NCBI GenBank assembly: GCA_964429815.1
Contig: CAYSCM010000001.1
Coordinates: 192,001 to 256,000 of the forward strand
Source of the DNA: an uncultured Candidatus Saccharibacteria bacterium
GTDB lineage: Bacteria > Patescibacteriota > Minisyncoccia > Phycocordibacterales > CAYSCM01
Reading direction: 5' to 3'
Length of the DNA stretch: 64,000 nucleotides
The number at the start of each line of letters is the position of its first letter. Within the stretch, counting starts at the first letter, position 1. The position numbers and the translations under genes are program-made. Below, piece after piece: positions 4,496-47,574 of this stretch. The notes beneath the pieces are model-generated. The model made no database searches. It had not been told where the DNA came from and saw nothing but the letters and a program-made list of their open reading frames with translations.

Positions 4496-4939
4496 TTAGC
4501 GATAGGCGCCCGTTTTCTCCTTTATATCGAGGCTCCAGGCGAGATCCTTAAGTTTGCTCTCCGAGAGCTTAGGCACGACGATAGTCGCCTCCAGTTTCGT
4601 CTCCGGAGTGGCTTTTGCGGCGGCTTTGGGAACAACCTTTTTCCAGAGGTAGAGCCGGCCGCGCATCATGTAGTAGAAGGCCGCCTCGAGAGTCTCGATG
4701 AACGGACGATTATTTATCTTATAGAACGCAAGTGCAGCGGAAAGCGCGGCGACCGGAATACCAAGGAGTATCACGAGAAAAAGTGGCAGAAAAACGTAGA
4801 GAATGGCGATCACTCCTCCACCGCCGGCGAGGTAGACAAACTGGCGGAACGTGAGGGGCCCCACTATCTTGTCTTCCACCTCAATGAACTGCGGCACCTG
4901 GAACTGCATAGAAGTAGTATACCCCGCGCAAAGCCGCAT
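4496..4939 (-). CDS. PrgI-family (VirB3-like) small membrane protein; true start may be the internal MQFQVPQF
   Basis: 147-aa ORF. Motif VPQFIEVEDKIVGPLTFRQFVYL is followed by two TM helices. Sits immediately upstream of the VirB4-like gene, as in Gram-positive conjugation-type loci. Confidence 0.55.
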   Translation of the reverse strand: MRLCAGYTTSMQFQVPQFIEVEDKIVGPLTFRQFVYLAGGGGVIAILYVFLPLFLVILLGIPVAALSAALAFYKINNRPFIETLEAAFYYMMRGRLYLWKKVVPKAAAKATPETKLEATIVVPKLSESKLKDLAWSLDIKEKTGAYR

Positions 4940-4984
4940 CGCGGCTTTGCGCTGTAGATTCGGCGCGTACTACTATGAGTGCAT

Positions 4985-5273
4985 GAAATTCTATACGCCA
5001 AACTATGGAAACGCTTCACACGACGCCCGTCCGCAGTTTGAAATGCGCGGCAACGCCATCTACATCACCGCGCACCACCCCGGCTTTACCCCCAAAGGGG
5101 CGGTGCTCCCCTGGTATGAAAATAGGGGCGGGAAAGTCTATGCGACCGAGCATCACCCCGAGGGCAAATCACTCCATCCGGTCTATGAAATCCGGGGCGA
5201 TAGGGTGCACACTACGGTCGAACATTCTCAGCACGACCCACTACGCCACAGCTTTGAACTCCGCCTGCATTAA
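4985..5273 (+). CDS. possible small repeat protein (three degenerate ~22-aa repeats YExRG..(I/V)Y.T.HHP)
   Basis: Opposite-strand ORF in the 340-bp gap between operon genes. The protein repeats are FEMRGNAIYITAHHP, YENRGGKVYATEHHP and YEIRGDRVHTTVEHS. They arise from ~66-69-bp degenerate DNA tandem repeats that preserve the reading frame. No clear RBS. Confidence 0.25.
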
Positions 5274-5281
5274 AGCGAGTT

Positions 5282-5680
5282 CTATTTTTTTCGATATACA
5301 AATACTGACTTTATGCCGATGATGATCAGACTGATCAAGAAGAAAAGTATCGAGAGGAAGAACGAAATCCGCCCCTTGTCATTCGGAAACATCCAGTCAG
5401 TGCTGGTATTTGGCGCGATAAGTATCAACGCCACGGAGATTGCAAGAAACCACTGGGCAAAGCGGATCCACATTCGGAAAATTTCATCTCGGAGTTTATA
5501 GGTGACTAAACTCAAGATGAACAAAATTGGAAAAAACCTAAGTAAATCAATCAACCACAAAGTCTGATCTCTACAGAAAAAAAATTTATCTTGACATCCA
5601 TTACGAAGCACGAGGCTGAGAAGGATAAGAAACATTCCCGCGCCTATTCCGGAAAAAATTAAAAGAGTTTTTTTGGTCAT
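5282..5680 (-). CDS. hypothetical small membrane protein (about 4 TM)
   Basis: 132-aa hydrophobic ORF. Its stop abuts the next operon gene. Confidence 0.4.
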   Translation of the reverse strand: MTKKTLLIFSGIGAGMFLILLSLVLRNGCQDKFFFCRDQTLWLIDLLRFFPILFILSLVTYKLRDEIFRMWIRFAQWFLAISVALILIAPNTSTDWMFPNDKGRISFFLSILFFLISLIIIGIKSVFVYRKK

Positions 5681-5682
5681 AA

Positions 5683-8679
5683 CTATCTCAATCCTACCGT
5701 CACCGAATAGGTCTTTCCATCATCTAGCTGTGCAGACACTTTATACCAGTACCCAGGAGTAACCCCCTTCGTGTTCCAGTTGTAAATATATTGCCCTGGT
5801 GCCGAGTCCCAACGAAACTCACCTCCAGAGGTGCTGGGGTCGGAATATGTTGACTCATCGATGGCGGCAGTTAAAGTCGAGCCTTTAATCGGGGTAAGCC
5901 AAACTGGATTTTTACCTGCTTGTGCTAGCATTCCATTCACTTTCTTAAGTTGGAATTTTACCGGTACGGTACTTCCTCCTTTAAAAACGCTTAGAGACTG
6001 AGTGGGATTAATCGACGGGTCGTTTATTGGCTGGAGAAAACCGCTCCACCGATAGGTGATAGTCAGTGTGCCGACAATAAAAGAGGTGAATTGGTAGGTG
6101 CTCGAAGTTAAGGTGCCTATGGTGCAAATAATTGGATAAATTCCAATACCAGTTGTTGCTGTTGCCGTGGTTGAACATTGTGGAACCCCGGCAATGTCGT
6201 TGTGTGCCGCATCATCGCCATTTACAAATCCGCTGAAACTTACCGTAAAGGAAGGAATAGGAGAACCGAGCACGATGGTTTTATTATCCACGGTGACCGT
6301 AAGGGGATTGAAAACTACTAGTCCGTCCAACTTCGGAGTGAGAGAATAAACTGTAGTTCCGTCTCCGTTTACATCGAGTGAGAGAGGACTCGCGCCAGCG
6401 ATCGTCCCGTCAGAGAAATTCATAGTCGCGATGGTAGTTGTTGCCGAAGGAATGTCTGCGAACGTTGTTGTTGCAAGAATAGAATTCCCTTCAACCTCTT
6501 CTATTTTGAGAGTAAATCCTCCAGCCGATTCTCCTTCCAACCGCAGAGTCGGGAGGTCTTCTGCAGGGACACTCACGTATTTAATGTCACCAAACTCAGT
6601 GTACGTTGCTCCTGGGATGGTATTTTCAAGAATCCTTGTACTCGTTGCTAGTTTCAGGTGGTTCCCATTTTTATCATTGATCTCAATGGAAAGTGGTGAG
6701 TGCAGGAAGTATCTTAGACGCTTTTGAATTAAATGAGAGGGAACTTCTTTGGAGATGTATTGCGGTAGCTGTGCTGCGCTATTTATAATGATACCGTCAA
6801 TCAAATCGTTGAGTTGCCCAACTTCAAGGATGTCTGCGTGGTCTCTGCCCAAAGGAATAGTGAGTCGGTTGTCCTTATTGAACTGGTTCAAATCAACCCA
6901 ATATCTGCTCACGTTAGGCGAGCTCGTACTCATCGTGAGCGCACTTGGAGTGACTACAGTTCCGTCCCCATCGACAACGATGCCAAGGTCTTCGTCGAGA
7001 CATGGGTTGTACCTGAGACAATGGTAAAAGCCACCATTTCGATAAGAAATATTACCCACTGTTTCGTTGCCCCACCCCGCAATTTGATACAACTGAATTC
7101 CCGACGGTGGAACCCACGTATCGAGATGGCTATGCAGGACGTCAGCATCATTCAAGAGCAATGCATTACCGACGAGAGGATAGGTCACATTGGAAAATGA
7201 AGGCCCAGTTCGCCCCTCGATCCCCGAGACAAATGAAGCGAGCTCATTGAAAGTATTTATATTCGAGCCATAGGCGTCAGTAAATATTTTTGTCGTGCTG
7301 CCGCTCCGAAATGATATGGGTGGAGTAATCACATCACTCCCAGGCCCGTCAAAGTACGCTCGGGACGGGAGGAGGTTGTACACCATTGGAGAATTTTGTG
7401 CGAATGCGCGCGCCGTCGCCTCGCTTAGAACGAACCCCAAGGCATGTGATTGATTGGTTCCATCCAGGAGAGCCCCTACGGCGATAGGGGTCCCCGTTTG
7501 AGGAACGGCGACAAAAATAATCTTGTCGATAAGGGAGCTAGCTTCCGGACCGAGTATTTCCATCAATCTTTTGGCCAAAAGGCCCCCGTTGGAATGGGCG
7601 ATGATAGTGACTTTTCCGGTATTCGAGGTTCCGGCCAAGCGTCGAAGTTCCTGGAGTATGTACGGGGTCGTAGTGGAGCGGAGGTTTCCCGAATAGTAGA
7701 TATGATCGCCGACCTGATGCCCATACTTTAGAATATCATCGAGCGACAATCGCCAGTCATAAGCAGCCGGCAGCCAATCCTTGATCGTGCCGGCGGTTTT
7801 GAGTTGATCCATTTCACCGATAAAACTTTTGTAAATATTCGCTCCGGTCGGCAATTCGTCGATAACGTCGCCGATTTTTGTATATATATCGCCACGCACG
7901 CTTGAACCATCCGGATTCATGAAAAGATCCCGCGCATCGGCATTGCTGAAGGGCTCCCACAGTCTATCTTCCCCTCCGCCGTCGGCCGGGCGATATAAGC
8001 GACTTGCCTCTATGCCAGGCAAAAAGAGCACGTTTGAGTTGCTTTGCGTATTGATATTACTCGTTCCGAGTTCGTCATACATCAGAAGATCGCCCAGGTC
8101 TGGGCGTGCACCGAATTCTGCCGACAAAGCGACGGTGTCGATGAAATCTCCCGCCGCATGAGCCACGGCGCCTACCCACGAGCAGTGTCCAACATCAACA
8201 TCATCTTGCTGAAAACATGTTTCCTTGGCACCTACATGATCTCGCCATGCAAAAAGATATTGATGCCACTGTCCATCGAGAGGAGTAAATCTATTTCTGA
8301 ATTCACAATTGGTTGAAGCCGAAACATTCGGCGCACCGGTACAAAGTAAAACGATGCTGCCGTACCCAAATTGAGCCCATCCGCTCTGGGCTTTTGCGTA
8401 GAATGTGATGTTTCCTTCGGTTAACGGAGTCCCTGTTTTGTAAATTCTAGGAATTTGGAAAAGCACGGTACTTTGAAGACATTGACCGGAGATACACCCG
8501 CTGCTCACTTGGGTAAACGGGCCTACACTTCCACCGTACACGTTCCAGCCAAAGTATCCGAAGGGTAAATCGAAGGAGTCGGAGACGGGAGCGGCCGCAA
8601 ACGCGTGACTGCCGGAGAGAAGAAGAAAAAATAGTCCGAAAACGAAAACGAAGAGTCGCCAGTAGCGGACTTTTTTCAT
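5683..8679 (-). CDS. large secreted protein with LCAT/PDAT-like alpha/beta-hydrolase (phospholipase A/acyltransferase) domain and C-terminal beta-rich (Ig-like) region
   Basis: 998 aa. Signal peptide MKKVRYWRLFVFVFGLFFLLLSGSHAFAAAP. Motif LPAAYDWRLSLDD matches the AAPYDWRL signature of lecithin:cholesterol acyltransferase-family enzymes. GXSXG-type nucleophile elbow IIAHSNGGLL lies about 55 aa downstream of that motif. The C-terminal 350 aa is Thr/Ser/Gly/Val-rich. Confidence 0.65.
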   Translation of the reverse strand: MKKVRYWRLFVFVFGLFFLLLSGSHAFAAAPVSDSFDLPFGYFGWNVYGGSVGPFTQVSSGCISGQCLQSTVLFQIPRIYKTGTPLTEGNITFYAKAQSGWAQFGYGSIVLLCTGAPNVSASTNCEFRNRFTPLDGQWHQYLFAWRDHVGAKETCFQQDDVDVGHCSWVGAVAHAAGDFIDTVALSAEFGARPDLGDLLMYDELGTSNINTQSNSNVLFLPGIEASRLYRPADGGGEDRLWEPFSNADARDLFMNPDGSSVRGDIYTKIGDVIDELPTGANIYKSFIGEMDQLKTAGTIKDWLPAAYDWRLSLDDILKYGHQVGDHIYYSGNLRSTTTPYILQELRRLAGTSNTGKVTIIAHSNGGLLAKRLMEILGPEASSLIDKIIFVAVPQTGTPIAVGALLDGTNQSHALGFVLSEATARAFAQNSPMVYNLLPSRAYFDGPGSDVITPPISFRSGSTTKIFTDAYGSNINTFNELASFVSGIEGRTGPSFSNVTYPLVGNALLLNDADVLHSHLDTWVPPSGIQLYQIAGWGNETVGNISYRNGGFYHCLRYNPCLDEDLGIVVDGDGTVVTPSALTMSTSSPNVSRYWVDLNQFNKDNRLTIPLGRDHADILEVGQLNDLIDGIIINSAAQLPQYISKEVPSHLIQKRLRYFLHSPLSIEINDKNGNHLKLATSTRILENTIPGATYTEFGDIKYVSVPAEDLPTLRLEGESAGGFTLKIEEVEGNSILATTTFADIPSATTTIATMNFSDGTIAGASPLSLDVNGDGTTVYSLTPKLDGLVVFNPLTVTVDNKTIVLGSPIPSFTVSFSGFVNGDDAAHNDIAGVPQCSTTATATTGIGIYPIICTIGTLTSSTYQFTSFIVGTLTITYRWSGFLQPINDPSINPTQSLSVFKGGSTVPVKFQLKKVNGMLAQAGKNPVWLTPIKGSTLTAAIDESTYSDPSTSGGEFRWDSAPGQYIYNWNTKGVTPGYWYKVSAQLDDGKTYSVTVGLR

Positions 8680-8709
8680 CCGGGAAGCCTACCATTGTCC
8701 CGCTTAGAG

Positions 8710-8773
8710 TCAATGCATACCGTGGCGTGCATTGAATACTCAAATTATAAGCTATAGCTTATAATTTGAGTAT
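8710..8773. promoter_or_regulatory. two adjacent palindromes in the promoter region of the LCAT-like gene: 8710..8735 (8-bp arms TCAATGCA/TGCATTGA, 10-nt spacer) and a 38-bp perfect AT-rich palindrome 8736..8773
   Basis: ATACTCAAATTATAAGCTATAGCTTATAATTTGAGTAT checked base by base as a perfect inverted repeat. It is AT-rich in a GC-rich background. It lies 57 bp upstream of the 5683..8679 start. Confidence 0.5.
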
Positions 8774-8829
8774 GGTGTTTTTCTGCTGCACACCGCTCTG
8801 AGCCTACAACGACATCTGGTCGGGTCTGA

Positions 8830-9732
8830 TTAGGAGAGGGGTTCGCGGTAGGGGTCGACTTTTGGCTTTTCAGGACCTGCGGAGGCGGAGGGGCCTATCG
8901 GTGGCACGATTTTTTTCTCCTGCATCGGGGAGCGCACCTGGCTTTGGAGCTTCGCCGCGGTGAAGTCTTGTCCAAAAGTGCGAAGTGGGGGAAGTGAGCT
9001 TTCCTGCACCGGCGCTCCCACCACCGGCCCTCTATTAATAGAGGGGGTCGGGGCAGGTTGCGGTGCGACCAGAGATGTGGCTTTTGTCGGAGCTGAGGAG
9101 ACCGAGGCCGGACGGACGGGAATTTCTGGCGTCTTTTGAAGAGCAGCTATCGCGTCGGCGAGAGCTTCTCTGCCGCCGGGCGCCGTCGAGGGGCGCGCAG
9201 GAATTGAACTCGAAAGTGGAGGTTTTGTCTGGGGAGGGGGCGGGGCTTGCCTTGGTACTTGCTCCCCAGGTGGCCTTTGTGGTTGCGGGGTTTGCGTCGC
9301 GGGTTGCGGTCGTGGTGTTTGTTGGGGTGCGGCTCCTCCTTCCCCACCGCGGGCATGTGCGAAGGGGGCGGATTGAAGGGAGGGCGTTATATCTCCTTTG
9401 AGAGGAGTTTGTTTTGAGGGTTCCTCGGTAATTTTTTTAAGAGAGTCGCGAATGGGTTTAAAAATCTGTTCATTAACATCCAGAACAACCGAGCCGACTT
9501 TTTCTACAGGAAAACCACGTTTTCGAAGTTCATCTGGTAGTACCTCAGCCTTAATTTCTCCAAGAATGACTAGCGTGATTACATCACTAAGAAGACCAAC
9601 CTTATCAATGAGTAGCGCCTGTTTCCTACCAATGGCTTGAATAGCTTCTGTTACTTTCTCAGAAAAAAGAACGTCTTGGAGTTCTGAAGGAAGTTGGAAT
9701 ATCCGTCTTATTTTTTGCTTAGTATCGATCAT
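8830..9732 (-). CDS. hypothetical protein with long Pro/Gln/Ala-rich low-complexity C-terminal half
   Basis: 300-aa ORF. N-terminal globular part (about 110 aa), then PQPATQTPQPQRPPGEQVPRQAPPPPQTKPP-type proline-rich tract. Confidence 0.45.
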   Translation of the reverse strand: MIDTKQKIRRIFQLPSELQDVLFSEKVTEAIQAIGRKQALLIDKVGLLSDVITLVILGEIKAEVLPDELRKRGFPVEKVGSVVLDVNEQIFKPIRDSLKKITEEPSKQTPLKGDITPSLQSAPFAHARGGEGGAAPQQTPRPQPATQTPQPQRPPGEQVPRQAPPPPQTKPPLSSSIPARPSTAPGGREALADAIAALQKTPEIPVRPASVSSAPTKATSLVAPQPAPTPSINRGPVVGAPVQESSLPPLRTFGQDFTAAKLQSQVRSPMQEKKIVPPIGPSASAGPEKPKVDPYREPLS

Positions 9733-13840: not shown

Positions 13841-14805
13841 GAAGAAAGCGTAAGCTTGAGGTTATTCACGAGCATAAAGCTTCCTAGGGTGCGGAAGGAC
13901 TGGTTGAGCGCGGCTTCTCGCGCCTCATAGCCGCTCATGGCGACGAAGGCGACGAGAGGGTCGGTCGCGATGGTCTCGAGGTCGGCGAGCGTTGCCTTCA
14001 TGCCCGAGAGAGCGTTGAGGAGTCCCACATGTGCCGAAAGTGCGTCGCGCGGAACGTTCATCGACACGAGCGCGCGGATACTTTCCCCATAGAGCGCGAC
14101 GTCGTGCTTGTAGGTCATCATCCCGTTTGGATCTTGACCGCTGATGGCATTCTGGAGCGTGAGAAGCTCGTACTCTTTGATGGAAAGGACCGGTGCGAGC
14201 GCGGCGCTGAGGGCACGGTTGTATGCGGCAAGCGTCGACGATGAGGTGCCGGTGACGGAAACGTCGCCGGCTGCGTACACCGTTGGTTTGGTCGCGACGT
14301 TGCCGCTTGCGGCTACGGCATTGACGACCGCCTGCTCATCCTCGGGGGTGAGCGTCTGGCCGCCCTGCTTTTTGCTCAAATAATTTTTGAACAGATTGAT
14401 GGCAAGCGCGTCGGTGTTGCTGAGGCCATTGCCGGGGGCGGTACGAGCGGTAAGGTCGAGCGTCGATCCTGGAGACGTGACAGACGGACTTTTTCCCTCC
14501 CCCGGTGTGAGAGGGTCGCGGCCCTGCGCGACTTCCTGTCCGTCGGAGACCCCGTCGCCGTCGGTGTCGGGATTGTGCGGATCGGTGCCGCGGAGTTGTT
14601 CTTCCCAGTCGGGAAGGCCGTCCCCGTCACTGTCCTTACTTGCCGACGCTATAAGAGCGCTACTTATAGCATCTTCCGAGCTCGCAAGTGAGGGGGAGGA
14701 TGGGGTTTTTGGTTGTAGGAGCGTGAAAAAGGCGACTAAGGCGACGAAAAGAGCCACCACAATGAAAACAAGTACCAGCCCTCTGCTTGGTAGCCACTTG
14801 TACAC
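13837..14805 (-). CDS. membrane-anchored protein with thrombospondin-type-3-like calcium-binding repeats
   Basis: 322 aa. N-terminal TM helix LVLVFIVVALFVALVAFFTLL, then DSDGDGLPDWEE and DTDGDGVSDGQE repeats of DxDxDG type. Confidence 0.45.
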   Translation of the reverse strand: MYKWLPSRGLVLVFIVVALFVALVAFFTLLQPKTPSSPSLASSEDAISSALIASASKDSDGDGLPDWEEQLRGTDPHNPDTDGDGVSDGQEVAQGRDPLTPGEGKSPSVTSPGSTLDLTARTAPGNGLSNTDALAINLFKNYLSKKQGGQTLTPEDEQAVVNAVAASGNVATKPTVYAAGDVSVTGTSSSTLAAYNRALSAALAPVLSIKEYELLTLQNAISGQDPNGMMTYKHDVALYGESIRALVSMNVPRDALSAHVGLLNALSGMKATLADLETIATDPLVAFVAMSGYEAREAALNQSFRTLGSFMLVNNLKLTLSS

Positions 14806-28849: not shown

Positions 28850-28884
28850 AAAAACCCGAGCAGGACTACCTGCTCGGGTTTTCT
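28850..28884. terminator. bidirectional intrinsic terminator (CCCGAGCAG-GACTAC-CTGCTCGGG flanked by A-run and T-run)
   Basis: 9-bp perfect stem between two convergent genes. Confidence 0.7.
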
Positions 28885-30220: not shown

Positions 30221-31132
30221 ATGGCCGACCTTGAGACGCTCAAACGCCAGTTCCTCGAACACCTTGAGATAGAAAAGGGCCGCTCGCTCAAGACGATCGA
30301 AAATTACGATCGCTACCTCTCGCGCTTCCTCGATTTCACCAAAACGAAATCCCCCAAAAGCATCTCGGACGATTCGGTGCGAGAATTCCGGCTTTGGCTC
30401 AACCGCCAGCCAGGCGGCGGCAACGAGACGCTCAAGCGCAAGACGCAAAACTACTACCTCATCGCGCTTCGCGCGTTCCTCAAGTACTTGCGCAAGCGCG
30501 GCATTGAGTCCATCTCCCCGGAGCGCATCGAGCTTGCCAAAGTATCGCAGCGGGAACTCGATCTCATTTCAGGAAGCGAACTCGAGCGTTTGATGAAAGC
30601 ACCGGAAGAGAACACTCTCTCTTCCCTTCGCGATCGCGCCATCCTTGAGCTTCTTTTTTCGACCGGATTGCGGGTGTCAGAGCTCACCTCGCTCAATGCC
30701 GACATCGACTTGGGGAGCGACGAGCTTTCCGTGCGCGGCAAGGGCGAAAAAATACGCGTGGTGTTTCTCTCCCCCTCAGCCAAAGATGCCCTGAAAAAGT
30801 ACCTCGCGAAACGAAAGGACATGGACGAAGCGCTCTTCGTGCAGATGGGAAAAAACGCTAAAGGAGTGAGTGAACTTCGCCTCACCCCGCGCTCCGTCGA
30901 GCGGCTCGTGAAACGCTACGCGATAAAGGCCGGCATCACGCGCAAGGTGACCCCGCATGTCATCCGTCACTCCTTCGCCACCGACCTTCTTCATAATGGC
31001 GCGGACCTTCGAAGTGTGCAGGCGATGCTCGGGCACGCCAACATCGCGACGACGCAGGTCTACACACATGTTACCGACAAGCACCTACGAGACATTCACA
31101 AACATTTTCACGGGCGTAAGCGTCGCTCCTAA
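30221..31132 (+). CDS. xerD: tyrosine site-specific recombinase XerC/XerD family
   Basis: 303 aa. Catalytic region HVIRHSFATDLLHNGADLRSVQAMLGHANIATTQVYTHV with the R..H..R..Y signature and an N-terminal SAM-like domain. Confidence 0.85.
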   Translation: MADLETLKRQFLEHLEIEKGRSLKTIENYDRYLSRFLDFTKTKSPKSISDDSVREFRLWLNRQPGGGNETLKRKTQNYYLIALRAFLKYLRKRGIESISPERIELAKVSQRELDLISGSELERLMKAPEENTLSSLRDRAILELLFSTGLRVSELTSLNADIDLGSDELSVRGKGEKIRVVFLSPSAKDALKKYLAKRKDMDEALFVQMGKNAKGVSELRLTPRSVERLVKRYAIKAGITRKVTPHVIRHSFATDLLHNGADLRSVQAMLGHANIATTQVYTHVTDKHLRDIHKHFHGRKRRS

Positions 31133-35479: not shown

Positions 35480-35610
35480 ACGTAATAAACTTTTCTTACA
35501 TGGCCTGTCTCATAGAAAACTCATAATTTGAGCGTTTCTGTGGATAAATCTGTGAGTATGTGTATTAAGGACAGTCCTATAACCAAAGAATGGCTTTAAA
35601 TCCGTAAAAG

Positions 35611-35656
35611 TTTCACGTGAAAATTAGTTACACGTGAAAATGTTACATGTGAAATG
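35611..35656 (+). repeat. three direct repeats TT(T/A)CACGTGAAAAT at 16-17-bp spacing upstream of the yraN-like gene
   Basis: tttCACGTGaaaat / ttaCACGTGaaaat / ttaCATGTGaaat. Confidence 0.5.
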
Positions 35657-35666
35657 GCAATCCACA

Positions 35667-36047
35667 ATGAACGAACTGGGAAGACTCGGAGAGGACATTG
35701 TTTGCCGCTATCTTTCTGATAGGGGGTATCGGATTGTTTCAAGGAACTATCGTAAAAAGTGGGGTGAAATTGATGTAATTACGACTAAGGGCGGAATCCT
35801 CCATTTCATTGAAGTTAAAGCTGTTTCGCGTGAAAATCTTGACTCAATTTCACAAGAAACAAATTCCTATCGTCCAGAGGACAATGCTCATCCGGAAAAG
35901 CTCAGACGCCTTGCAAGAACCGTTGAAACATATTTACTGGAAAAAGGTGTAGAAGGTGGGCAGTGGAGATTTGATGTTGCGGCTGTCTATATCGATCAGA
36001 GGAAAAAGAAGGCAAAAGTTTCTCTTCTCGAGAACGTTATTTTATAG
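35667..36047 (+). CDS. yraN: YraN-family (UPF0102) putative endonuclease
   Basis: ORF 35634..36047 with likely start MNELGRLGEDIVCRYL. Motif GEIDVI...FIEVKA typical of YraN. Confidence 0.6.
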   Translation: MNELGRLGEDIVCRYLSDRGYRIVSRNYRKKWGEIDVITTKGGILHFIEVKAVSRENLDSISQETNSYRPEDNAHPEKLRRLARTVETYLLEKGVEGGQWRFDVAAVYIDQRKKKAKVSLLENVIL

Positions 36048-37928: not shown

Positions 37929-37998
37929 GGCCGCCTCCTTTTTGCTGCTCGCCGCAGCATACTCGACAGACTGGTCGTGTCAACTTGGTCAGAAACAT

Positions 37999-38024
37999 AA
38001 AAACCCCACGCTGTGGGGTTTTTA
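37999..38024. terminator. bidirectional intrinsic terminator (AAAAA-CCCCAC-GCTG-GTGGGG-TTTTT) downstream of hup
   Basis: 6-bp GC stem flanked by A-run and T-run. Confidence 0.7.
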
Positions 38025-38057
38025 TGTGTAGTGGTGAAATTCACCGGCCGGTGAATC

Positions 38058-40365: not shown

Positions 40366-40815
40366 ATGGACGGGCAGGAGATCATTCGGCGCCTCTCGCC
40401 ACTTTCGTTGCCAGCCGGACAGTATTGCTGTTTCGGCTCGTGCACCCTCGCGCTTCTCGGTATCCGGGAAGCCAAAGACATTGACGTCCTCGCCACGCCG
40501 GAAATTTGCGATGAGCTCCGAGGGCTCGGCTGGAGGGAGGAGCTTGTTCCCGCTGGCAGACCACAGAAGCAAACGCCCGTGTTGCGGCGTTTACAGTACC
40601 CCAACGTCGATATCTTCCGGACCTGGGACTACACAGGCTTTAATCGGACACCGACCGAGATAATCGCCGATGCAGACGAGTCAGACGGTATCTATTTTGC
40701 CAAGCTCGGCGACGTCATCGACTGGAAACACGCCTTTGGGCGTGAAAAGGACAAGGTCGATCTCAAACTGATCGAGCGGCATTTGAAGAACCTTCAGAAG
40801 TTTGTTAACCGATGA
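40366..40815 (+). CDS. hypothetical protein, possibly a nucleotidyltransferase fold (GSCTLALLGIREAKDIDV)
   Basis: 149-aa ORF with good RBS AAGGAGG. Has a G[S]-x-DxD-like motif. Confidence 0.4.
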   Translation: MDGQEIIRRLSPLSLPAGQYCCFGSCTLALLGIREAKDIDVLATPEICDELRGLGWREELVPAGRPQKQTPVLRRLQYPNVDIFRTWDYTGFNRTPTEIIADADESDGIYFAKLGDVIDWKHAFGREKDKVDLKLIERHLKNLQKFVNR

Positions 40816-41875: not shown

Positions 41876-41890
41876 TGTAGAAATGGAAAA

Positions 41891-41917
41891 GGCCTCGGAC
41901 GAATCCGAGGCCTTTTA
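41891..41917. terminator. intrinsic terminator GGCCTCGGA-CGAA-TCCGAGGCC followed by TTTTA
   Basis: 9-bp perfect stem. A-run on the other side makes it bidirectional. Confidence 0.7.
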
Positions 41918-42485: not shown

Positions 42486-43238
42486 ATGCTAAAGGAACTC
42501 CAGGACTTTGGACTCTCTGAAAAAGAAGCAAAAGTGTATCTCGCCTCACTTGAGGTTGGACGGGCAACCGCAGATCAGCTCGCGAAGCAAGCTAAAGTGA
42601 ATCGCTCGACCACGTACGTACAAATGGAGTCTCTTATGAAAAAGGGACTCATGAGTACCTACGTAAAGGGCAAGAAAACCTATTTTGCCCCCGAGTCGCC
42701 GGAGTATCTCGAGCAAATTCTTCAACGGAAAAGAAGTAATCTAGAATCAACGGCACTGGAGCTCAAAAAGAAACTCCCTGATCTGGTGCGTCTCTATGAC
42801 AGTGCCGGCGAGAGGCCATTTGTGCGTTTTTTTGACGGGAAAGATGGCATAACCGCCATGCGCGAGGAAACACTCCAGCTTCCGAGGGGAGAAACTTTTT
42901 ATGTAATGTATTCTTACGACGCACTGAGATCCCTTTATTCATCAGAAGAAATTCAGGATTTTTCAGAGCGACGTGAAAAGAAGGGTCTAAAAATTAAACT
43001 TCTTTACACTCGCAAAGATGGAAAATTTGATCCAAAAAACATCGCAGTCGACACGGAAAGACGTTTTTTCTCTCATGAGAAATTGGGACTCGATACCGAT
43101 TTTTTTATTTATGGAGATAAAGTTGCTCTTATGGCTCTAAAAGGGAAGGTGTTTGGTATTGTCATTGAAAGCGCAGTTATTGCGGACAGCTTCCGTACTA
43201 TATTTGAGCGACTCTGGGAAGGAGCTGAGGAAGAATAA
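42486..43238 (+). CDS. TrmB-family transcriptional regulator
   Basis: 250 aa. N-terminal winged-HTH LSEKEAKVYLASLEVGRATADQLAKQAKVNRSTTYVQMESLMKKGLM typical of TrmB, plus C-terminal effector domain. Confidence 0.7.
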   Translation: MLKELQDFGLSEKEAKVYLASLEVGRATADQLAKQAKVNRSTTYVQMESLMKKGLMSTYVKGKKTYFAPESPEYLEQILQRKRSNLESTALELKKKLPDLVRLYDSAGERPFVRFFDGKDGITAMREETLQLPRGETFYVMYSYDALRSLYSSEEIQDFSERREKKGLKIKLLYTRKDGKFDPKNIAVDTERRFFSHEKLGLDTDFFIYGDKVALMALKGKVFGIVIESAVIADSFRTIFERLWEGAEEE

Positions 43239-47530: not shown

Positions 47531-47547
47531 AGGAGGGCGGACAATAC

Positions 47548-47574
47548 AAAATCCGCCCGAGGGCGGATTTTGTG
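47548..47574. terminator. stem-loop AAAATCCGCCC-GA-GGGCGGATTTT between 47588..47953 gene and tig (terminator or attenuator)
   Basis: 11-bp perfect stem flanked by A and T runs. Confidence 0.55.

Follow-up and report, generated by a model that had tools for sequence, protein, structure and literature searches.

The window analysed here, a 64,000-nt stretch from an uncultured Candidatus Saccharibacteria bacterium (contig CAYSCM010000001.1), carries a perfect 38-bp palindrome (ATACTCAAATTATAAGCTA-TAGCTTATAATTTGAGTAT, 19+19 nt without a spacer) in the dead centre of a 150-nt intergenic gap (8680–8829), with 56 nt on either side. Both flanking genes lie on the minus strand, the gap being bounded by the TAA stop codon of a gene for a 300-aa protein and by the ATG of a gene for a 998-aa LCAT-like α/β-hydrolase. 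A smaller inverted repeat (TCAATGCA-N10-TGCATTGA) abuts the palindrome on the hydrolase side, and both repeats were found where a preliminary description of this DNA had placed them. The window encodes RNase Y, NusA, trigger factor, PNPase and a tRNA cluster, i.e. bacterial gene content, and the source bacterium is Parcubacteria-like; homologs of the 998-aa protein carry the source labels Kaiserbacteria, Paceibacterota or Patescibacteria. With a G+C content of ~54%, the genome is not as strongly G+C-rich as had been supposed.

As previously suspected, a palindrome of this length is beyond chance: ~2.6e-7 spacer-less palindromes with arms of at least 19 nt are expected per 64 kb, 100 Markov resamplings of the window yielded arms of up to 11 nt, and the half-site had no occurrences in shuffled windows. 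The smaller repeat is only modestly unusual, an equivalent arising in 62 of 5,000 shuffles of the remaining gap. Two Logan contigs (k=31, run SRR12313482) cover the site, of which one ends and the other starts inside the palindrome, each carrying exactly 30 palindrome bases adjoining its own flank. Since a real palindrome longer than k should break the assembly graph in exactly this way, the two contig ends constitute an independent reconstruction of the element. RNA copied from either strand is predicted to fold into a 17-bp stem closed by a 4-nt loop (ΔG −20.0 kcal/mol, z of about −8.7). The palindrome is immediately flanked by ...GCATTGA on one side and GGTGTTT... on the other; its distal flank contains a run of five Ts on the plus strand (8778–8782), beginning 4 nt past the stem, as well as a weak repeat (GGTGT-N11-ACACC).

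Searches for further copies and for membership in known families returned little. The half-site search proposed in the preliminary description, run over 78 kb (the window together with contig L002), found a single site: no second copy occurred elsewhere in the window at up to 3 mismatches, nor any further copies above chance in the 78 kb when 2–5 mismatches were allowed. A public genome collection that lacks the source genome gave only five half-site hits, each single and attributable to chance, in Bacteroidota and Lentisphaerota. The inner palindrome had no match among viral contigs and the gap none among plasmids, while Rfam, at gathering as well as permissive thresholds, returned only plant miRNA-hairpin matches far below threshold.

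Palindromes also precede several homologs of the hydrolase gene. At locus L009, which encodes a protein 50% identical to that of the window and has PMM as its upstream neighbour, a perfect 34-bp spacer-less palindrome (ACACCGAACCTACGCTA-TAGCGTAGGTTCGGTGT) lies 61 nt before the ATG. A Logan contig breaks inside this palindrome, which is bridged by a separately assembled metagenome contig (k141_26647), and its half-site occurs once in 15 kb. The window and L009 palindromes agree in the centre GCTATAGC, at 10 of 17 arm positions and in a flank of the form TGTGCA..GAAAACACC, the shared distal flank reading TGTGCA-N2-3-GAAAA(A)CACC. All seven differing positions (7/7) are altered in both arms, with no one-arm change and no pair broken. 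A further locus, L076, contains an oriC-like DnaA-box cluster at 6200–6400 (TATCCACA / TGGATA) that includes a near-perfect 38-bp palindrome likewise centred on GCTATAGC; kinship with it was considered and discarded, as the L076 structure consists of two inverted DnaA boxes and the shared centre is apparently coincidental.

Where a perfect palindrome exceeds k, Logan k=31 contigs break off after exactly 30 nt of it (L001 at its end; L002, L010 and L093 at their starts), so that contig ends ~60–100 nt upstream of a gene can serve to detect palindromes. L093 (protein 55% identical) starts 103 nt before the ATG with AATTCTAGCAT-ATGCTAGAATTTGCTATTT. By this k−1 logic, we infer for it a palindrome of 38 bp that stops 73 nt short of the ATG, with GCT.A.AATTTG common to its arm and that of the window. 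Looser structures were found at L095 (an imperfect palindrome of ~48 bp with a 3-nt loop, one mismatch and one indel) and at L011/L012 (15-nt arms around a 52-nt loop), all ~60–155 nt upstream of the ATG and each downstream of a separate canonical terminator. More generally, regions upstream of the homologs are more structured than coding controls (z < −3 in 9/55 vs. 1/55). The palindromes of the window, L009 and L093 appear connected by vertical descent and by their gene, not independently inserted, and the element is tied to the gene and constrained to some degree in pairing or symmetry, yet dispensable.

Comparison with a close relative, represented by contigs L098/L099 (VirB4 93% identical, same gene order), places the palindrome within an accessory block (Table 1). 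In the relative, genes follow one another as UvrD, KsgA, a TSP3 protein, 552-aa, 797-aa and 258-aa proteins, a 96-aa protein on the opposite strand, PrgI, TraC-like, VirB4, ... jag, yidC and dnaA. The palindrome, the LCAT-like gene and the 132-aa gene that follows it are missing there, all three together: between the 258-aa and 96-aa anchors the relative has 433 nt (8152–8584 of L098/L099) vs. 3,556 nt in the window. Those 433 nt hold, on the other strand, a gene for a four-helix-bundle protein of the 23S_rRNA_IVP family, flanked by A-rich imperfect inverted repeats (TAAGAAATAAAAGAGA / TCTCTTATTTCTTC). The site looks like a hot spot for accessory genes within a cluster resembling a type IV secretion system (T4SS), whose PrgI, TraC-like and VirB4-type ATPase genes belong to the minus-strand genes running from 14805 to 383. 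Leftward of the window, the run continues into a T4SS pilin gene and then jag, yidC, rnpA and dnaA, implying that the cluster is chromosomal and near the origin; the palindrome lies ~13 kb from dnaA/rnpA/yidC.

The block appears portable. In all seven homolog loci that could be read past the stop codon of the LCAT-like gene, a small gene (116–148 aa) follows directly, and the inspected homolog loci have unrelated neighbourhoods (RNase HII, PMM, FtsK, ribosomal-protein genes, DnaJ). The earlier suggestion that the palindrome controls the downstream half of an operon therefore fails: the lipase-like and 132-aa genes form a separate block, absent from the relative, and the genes from PrgI to VirB4 constitute another unit with a putative promoter of its own (TATACT-6-ATG). 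The 300-aa upstream protein is essentially an orphan in homolog searches and was consequently useless for comparison. In view of the general biology of the candidate phyla radiation (CPR), the LCAT-like secreted hydrolase is a candidate for host-lipid scavenging.

On the far side of the block, the 96-aa gene of the window (4983–5273, plus strand) encodes a His-rich protein that is 66% identical to its counterpart in the relative and has no Pfam match; it converges with the 132-aa gene, 8 nt separating the two stop codons. Elsewhere in the window, ~40 kb from dnaA, a perfect DnaA box (TGTGGATAA, 35539–35547) precedes three tandem parS-like sites (GTTTCACGTGAAAA at 35610, GTTACACGTGAAAA at 35628, GTTACATGTGAAAT at 35643) and then ATCCACA, the whole stretch (35539–35669) lying between the tRNA cluster and a UPF0102 gene.

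Table 1. Features of the palindrome locus and related sites in the window.
Feature	Position	Strand	Remarks
38-bp palindrome	8736..8773		21% G+C, centre GCTATAGC, intergenic
Second inverted repeat	8710..8735		TCAATGCA-N10-TGCATTGA; 8-nt arms, abuts palindrome; predicted RNA ΔG −10.5
Distal flank	8774..8794		minus strand reads GGTGTGCAGCAGAAAAACACC; plus strand begins GGTGTTTTTC
−35-like hexamer TTGACT	8708..8713	−	putative promoter, read from sequence; 16 nt upstream of −10
Extended −10-like TGgTAGGCT	8686..8694	−	putative; hexamer TAGGCT at 8691–8686, 6 nt before ATG
LCAT-like α/β-hydrolase, 998 aa	5683..8679	−	MBG ('PxKF') domain, signal-peptide-like N-terminus, secreted
Hydrophobic protein, 132 aa	5282..5680	−	small gene after LCAT-like gene
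300-aa gene	8830..9732	−	last of upstream four-gene unit starting at 14805; ortholog of 258-aa gene in L098
Accessory block	5274..8829	−	gap with palindrome, LCAT-like gene and 132-aa gene; 3,556 nt
TAnnnT start	8679		998-aa gene
TAnnnT start	4909		TATACT-6-ATG; PrgI, provided that PrgI starts here
TAnnnT start	14805		TATACT-6-GTG
TAnnnT start	18102		
TAnnnT start	21134		TACACT-6-ATG
TAnnnT start	32302		TAGCAT
TAnnnT start	37415		spacing 8 nt
TAnnnT start	52794		TAGTGT
TAnnnT start			TATAGT-6-ATG; UvrD-like gene
Bidirectional terminator	28851–28882		
Bidirectional terminator	37995–38027		
Bidirectional terminator	41887–41916		
Bidirectional terminator	47546–47573		

On the minus strand, the 56 nt between palindrome and ATG have the layout of a promoter: TTGACT, 16 nt, TGgTAGGCT, 6 nt, ATG. 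A consensus scanner missed it because the putative −10 element matches at only 3 of 6 positions. The hexamer TAnnnT placed 6 nt before the start codon (exactly −12) is found for the 998-aa gene and at least six other first-in-unit genes of the window (7/52, P ~2e-7), and across 58 LCAT-homolog loci TAnnnT is concentrated at −14 to −12 (20 loci, over a background of ~1.3 per position). As this spacing is systematic in both sets, we infer that the mRNA of the 998-aa gene is leaderless or near-leaderless, beginning at or beside the ATG, and the pattern suggests that leaderless mRNAs are common in the lineage; a literature search for leaderless, promoter or palindrome elements in Patescibacteria/Parcubacteria found nothing specific. 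The genes at 40366 and 50614 have an ordinary AGGAG Shine-Dalgarno sequence instead of TAnnnT. Next to the TATACT-6-ATG at 4909 lies a perfect, G+C-rich hairpin with 12-bp arms (4926–4952, ΔG −22.3) and no U tract on either strand; given this adjacency, 4909 is probably the start of PrgI, in preference to the ATG at 4939, which falls within the hairpin.

With transcription starting at the ATG, the palindrome would occupy positions −57 to −94 and the smaller repeat −31 to −56. The palindrome, which the preliminary description had placed in the promoter, would hence adjoin the putative promoter and fall outside its core; only the smaller repeat reaches the −35 box, its promoter-proximal arm supplying the TTGA of TTGACT on the minus strand. 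This smaller repeat is the more likely seat of a conventional repressor.

The palindrome is one of many in this part of the bacterial tree. In 583 kb of Parcubacteria loci, perfect palindromes (arms of at least 12 nt, loops of at most 4 nt) have a frequency of about one per 10 kb, where less than one is expected in total. Many are bidirectional terminators with A/T runs inside their arms; those of the window (Table 1) have G+C-rich stems with ΔG of −20.8 to −24.3 kcal/mol. A second group has arms of 17–22 nt, loops of 0–1 nt and no clear T run, and every clear case in the gene maps that were built stands between co-directional genes, 40–90 nt before the next start. Loop size was not cleanly associated with T-run class (Fisher P = 0.34). 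The members of the second group are of mixed kinds. At L097, for instance, a 36-bp spacer-less palindrome occupies a boundary position between rplL and a TAGGAT-6-ATG promoter motif. An apparent 43-bp palindrome at L059 resolves into a 21-bp dyad present twice, a third copy of which lies over the start of the next gene; the window palindrome is not built this way, as its 19-nt arm is not itself palindromic.

Some of these palindromes belong to repeat families associated with transposase genes. A 44-bp perfect palindrome at L075, 81 nt before the ATG of the LCAT homolog, is made of the GTAG-containing 16-mer CTAGGGTAGTCCTTGT in two inverted copies; the 16-mer occurs 8 times in 10.7 kb (1–945, 3157, 6009, 7616) and flanks a Y1_Tnp (IS200/RAYT-like) gene. 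Three direct 16-mer copies with a 54-nt period lie upstream of this 242-aa Y1_Tnp gene, an inverted pair sits at its 3′ end, and some copies fall within the LCAT gene span. L075 thus holds a system resembling repetitive extragenic palindromic (REP) elements and their RAYTs, in a Parcubacteria genome. Y1_Tnp genes stand immediately upstream of the LCAT homolog in three loci (L075, L059 and L066) and, together with the L075 palindrome and 16-mer, they indicate that REP-like elements exist in the lineage and can take the same spot. The preliminary description had named generic, REP-like recurrence as the finding that would speak against a promoter-associated role; it is absent for the window palindrome within the 78 kb and present for the L075 palindrome at the same position.

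Further repeat families were seen at other loci. Preceding the Y1_Tnp genes are 2–3 copies of 21–23 bp dyads, TACAAAGGA-N3-TCCTTTGTA at L059 (2499–2616, 2785–2807) and TCCCAAAGAAC-N-GTTCTTTGGGA at L066 (2496–2587, 2770–2793), with one further copy inside the coding region; from L059 to L066, the changes in the dyad sequence are mirrored. Differing perfect palindromes share one position at L021 (2581–2611), L024 (3070–3104), L049 (2027–2061), L026 (2705–2731) and L054 (1–27), inside a conserved antisense gene located upstream of the LCAT homolog. GTAGGAC is present in several of them, they are apparently translated through in frame, recalling Rickettsia palindromic elements, and L021 has a second copy of the unit 5 kb off (7612–7646). 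A 29-bp palindrome (CCCCGTTAGAAATC-N-GATTTCTAACGGGG) is common to five metagenome loci, lying near the 3′ end of the LCAT homolog at L045 (6075–6103), L051 (2518–2546), L069 (6027–6055) and L080 (5826–5854), and ~1.5 kb past its stop, after an obg-like gene, at L016 (3839–3867).

We tentatively interpret the palindrome as a gene-linked transcription barrier of the hairpin type that bounds the accessory block on its 5′ side. Transcribed from either strand, it would form the 17-bp stem of about −20 kcal/mol and thereby a barrier at the block edge. On the plus strand, the stem followed by GGTGTTTTTC could stop backward (divergent or antisense) transcripts, themselves hypothetical, before they reach the upstream genes. 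On the minus strand, it could pause, weakly end or 3′-protect transcripts arriving from the upstream four-gene unit and so keep the leaderless promoter free; the internal AUG, having no Shine-Dalgarno sequence, would go untranslated on such transcripts anyway. In line with a barrier, the stability of the stem is close to that of the window's terminators, an A run followed by a hairpin in gene direction also occurs at L009 and L011, and the L097 palindrome occupies a boundary. The preliminary description saw no classical terminator here, which holds for both flanking genes in their own direction; the GGTGTTTTTC side, read on the plus strand, does score as terminator-like. Variable loops at homologous positions and fully compensatory change favour a structural constraint over protein binding with a fixed geometry.

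Several observations weigh against a barrier. In the sense direction, the stem is followed by UCAAUGCACG, with no U tract, and on the plus strand the T run comes 4 nt after the stem, with no plus-strand gene or proven promoter feeding it; no plus-strand ORF or Rfam RNA was found to end at the palindrome. The stem is AU-rich, unlike the G+C-rich terminators of the genome, and at its opposite end the block lacks a hairpin, having just 8 nt to the convergent gene. Most homolog loci, even those of the nearest kin of the L009 protein, do without a comparable element, which is therefore dispensable. Long palindromes are loop-free in 8 of 12 cases where 1/16 is expected (P ~9e-8), pointing to symmetry at the DNA level, and the hexamer CRAAYY (CAAATT/AATTTG; in L009 CGAACC/GGTTCG) is kept in the arms of the window, L093 and L009 palindromes at an operator-like spacing of 14–16 bp.

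These last two points favour the main rival reading, somewhat less likely than a barrier, in which the palindrome is an operator or upstream activating site: a symmetric regulator would bind at −57 to −94, and perhaps also at the −35 repeat, to switch the lipase-like gene on or off. The dyads lie directly upstream of, and overlap, a plausible promoter, and their symmetry runs through the centre, which an RNA hairpin does not need. Moreover, the outer-arm CACCGA/TCGGTG of L009 repeats as a second dyad just before the −10 element, and the L059 structure comprises separate 21-bp dyads, one of them over a gene start. However, 38 bp far exceeds the contact length of a dimer, yet every arm position is symmetric; loops of 0, 3 and 52 nt at homologous positions, the single half-site in 78 kb even at 2–5 mismatches and the absence of the element from most homologs likewise argue against an operator. 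No regulator gene was found within or next to the block, and the only transcription-factor-like gene of the window, the TrmB-like gene (42486–43238) previously put forward as a candidate, is 34 kb away. Small proteins (~190 aa) with PaaX_M/Cas2-like domains are encoded a few kb from LCAT homologs at L008 (150–728), L009 (9531–10121) and L088 (6856–7437), the last followed by a 42-bp spacer-less palindrome (7472–7513); they are possible regulators, and the window has none.

That the palindrome is a REP-like mobile hairpin or its relic, i.e. a substrate of a Y1 (IS200/RAYT-type) HUH transposase that was deposited beside the gene and then kept or tolerated, seems improbable to us. The Y1_Tnp genes directly upstream of three LCAT homologs, the eightfold GTAG 16-mer around the equally placed L075 palindrome and the recurrence of other palindrome families within and between Parcubacteria loci, some inside coding regions, would fit such an origin. 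So would the size and intergenic position of the element, REPs being palindromes of 20–40 bp found mainly between co-directional and convergent genes (PMC3733652). Neither GTAG nor CGTC, the unpaired tag expected on one side of a REP (PMC3733652), adjoins the window palindrome, and neither tblastn nor Pfam detected a Y1_Tnp/RAYT gene in the 64-kb window. Being single-copy in 78 kb (and at L009 in 15 kb), untagged and without a Y1 transposase nearby, the window palindrome is not shown to be a REP; its apparently vertical, gene-linked relation to the L009 and L093 palindromes and the failure to match viral contigs or plasmids speak against one as well. Least probable of all, in our estimate, is that it has no dedicated function, being either a quasi-palindrome that template-switching during replication made and kept perfect, in a small genome poor in repair, or an artefact of assembly. 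The abundance of perfect palindromes in these genomes and the many homologs that manage without one would fit such an account, and giant artefactual palindromes do occur in metagenome contigs: L077 (1–6216) is a 6.2-kb perfect inverted duplication with an arm of 3,108 nt, almost certainly an assembly artefact, and L078 (2–53) begins with part of the same junction. Yet an independent k=31 assembly rebuilds the window palindrome from both sides, a separate contig bridges that of L009, and the persistence of a homologous perfect element at ~50% protein identity, with centre and flank conserved, is hard to explain without selection.

Site-specific recombination and transfer sites were considered too and rejected. 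Xer/dif sites measure 28–31 bp with an 11-6/8-11 architecture, are conserved among relatives and lie at the replication terminus; the window element has 38 bp and arms that differ between genomes, lies ~13 kb from dnaA and is absent in the close relative. Integron attC sites are imperfect palindromes that bear RYYYAAC...GTTRRRY cores and form the 3′ end of a cassette, and an IntI gene is found close by. The window element, by contrast, is a perfect palindrome 5′ of a gene, its flanks contain no core sites, no integrase accompanies it and the other block end has no repeat; the only tyrosine recombinase of the window (30221–31132) is XerC/D-like and 21 kb away, and the block edges show no recombinase, tag or target duplication. 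Against a conjugative oriT stand the chromosomal nature of the T4SS-like cluster, which is conserved between ksgA and jag/yidC/dnaA, the fact that no relaxase was seen and the absence of the palindrome from the relative's T4SS cluster.

To our knowledge, almost no promoters, terminators or regulators have been characterised experimentally in Patescibacteria/CPR. The locus offers a testable picture for this group, combining leaderless-type promoters (TAnnnT six bases before the start codon), mobile accessory blocks and a symmetric hairpin that moves with one of them, and the switching or insulation of the LCAT-like secreted hydrolase is of biological interest given the candidate role of this widespread enzyme in scavenging lipids from hosts. 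As palindromes longer than k break k=31 assemblies at the site, short-k catalogues hide such elements. The finding by itself overturns nothing; the element is like known hairpin elements, and its function is putative. It is conceivable, if unlikely, that single-copy, centre-symmetric palindromes inherited with accessory genes form a Patescibacteria class of cassette boundaries unlike terminators, REPs and attC sites. Were this so, flawless symmetry despite deep sequence drift would imply a dedicated DNA-level reader or a symmetrising process, e.g. a HUH/Y1 enzyme specific for hairpins or a boundary protein that is itself symmetric, and the palindromes would mark and insulate, or even mobilise, leaderless cassettes.

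Among known systems, the palindrome resembles terminators, REPs and operators and has the full set of defining features of none. With bidirectional intrinsic terminators and insulator hairpins it shares a perfect stem-loop of terminator-like stability in a short co-directional gap and a T run on one strand. It differs from intrinsic terminators in its AU-rich stem, the missing U tract in gene direction, the T run displaced by 4 nt on the opposite strand, its centre symmetry and its inheritance with the downstream, not the upstream, gene. REP/REPIN elements with RAYTs are likewise 20–40 bp extragenic palindromes of species-specific sequence between co-directional genes, and comparable palindromes flank Y1 transposase genes beside the same gene family at L075, L059 and L066; in contrast, the window palindrome is single in 78 kb, carries no GTAG/CGTC tag, has no RAYT in the window and is apparently co-inherited vertically. 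Unlike the operators of dimeric repressors and activators (trp, pur and lac type; class I sites), it has twice the usual length, symmetric co-variation at all positions, an arm spacing that varies among homologs, no regulon copies in the 78 kb and no cognate regulator that we could find, whereas the dyad symmetry about its centre, the proximity to a promoter and the second dyad over the −35 box are as in those operators. A cruciform, raised in the preliminary description, is possible. Cruciform-prone AT-rich palindromes of promoters and origins are set apart by the L009 homolog with its 53% G+C and the L011 homolog with its 52-nt loop, but the window element itself is, like them, perfect and spacer-less, with an AT-rich centre that would favour extrusion under negative supercoiling.

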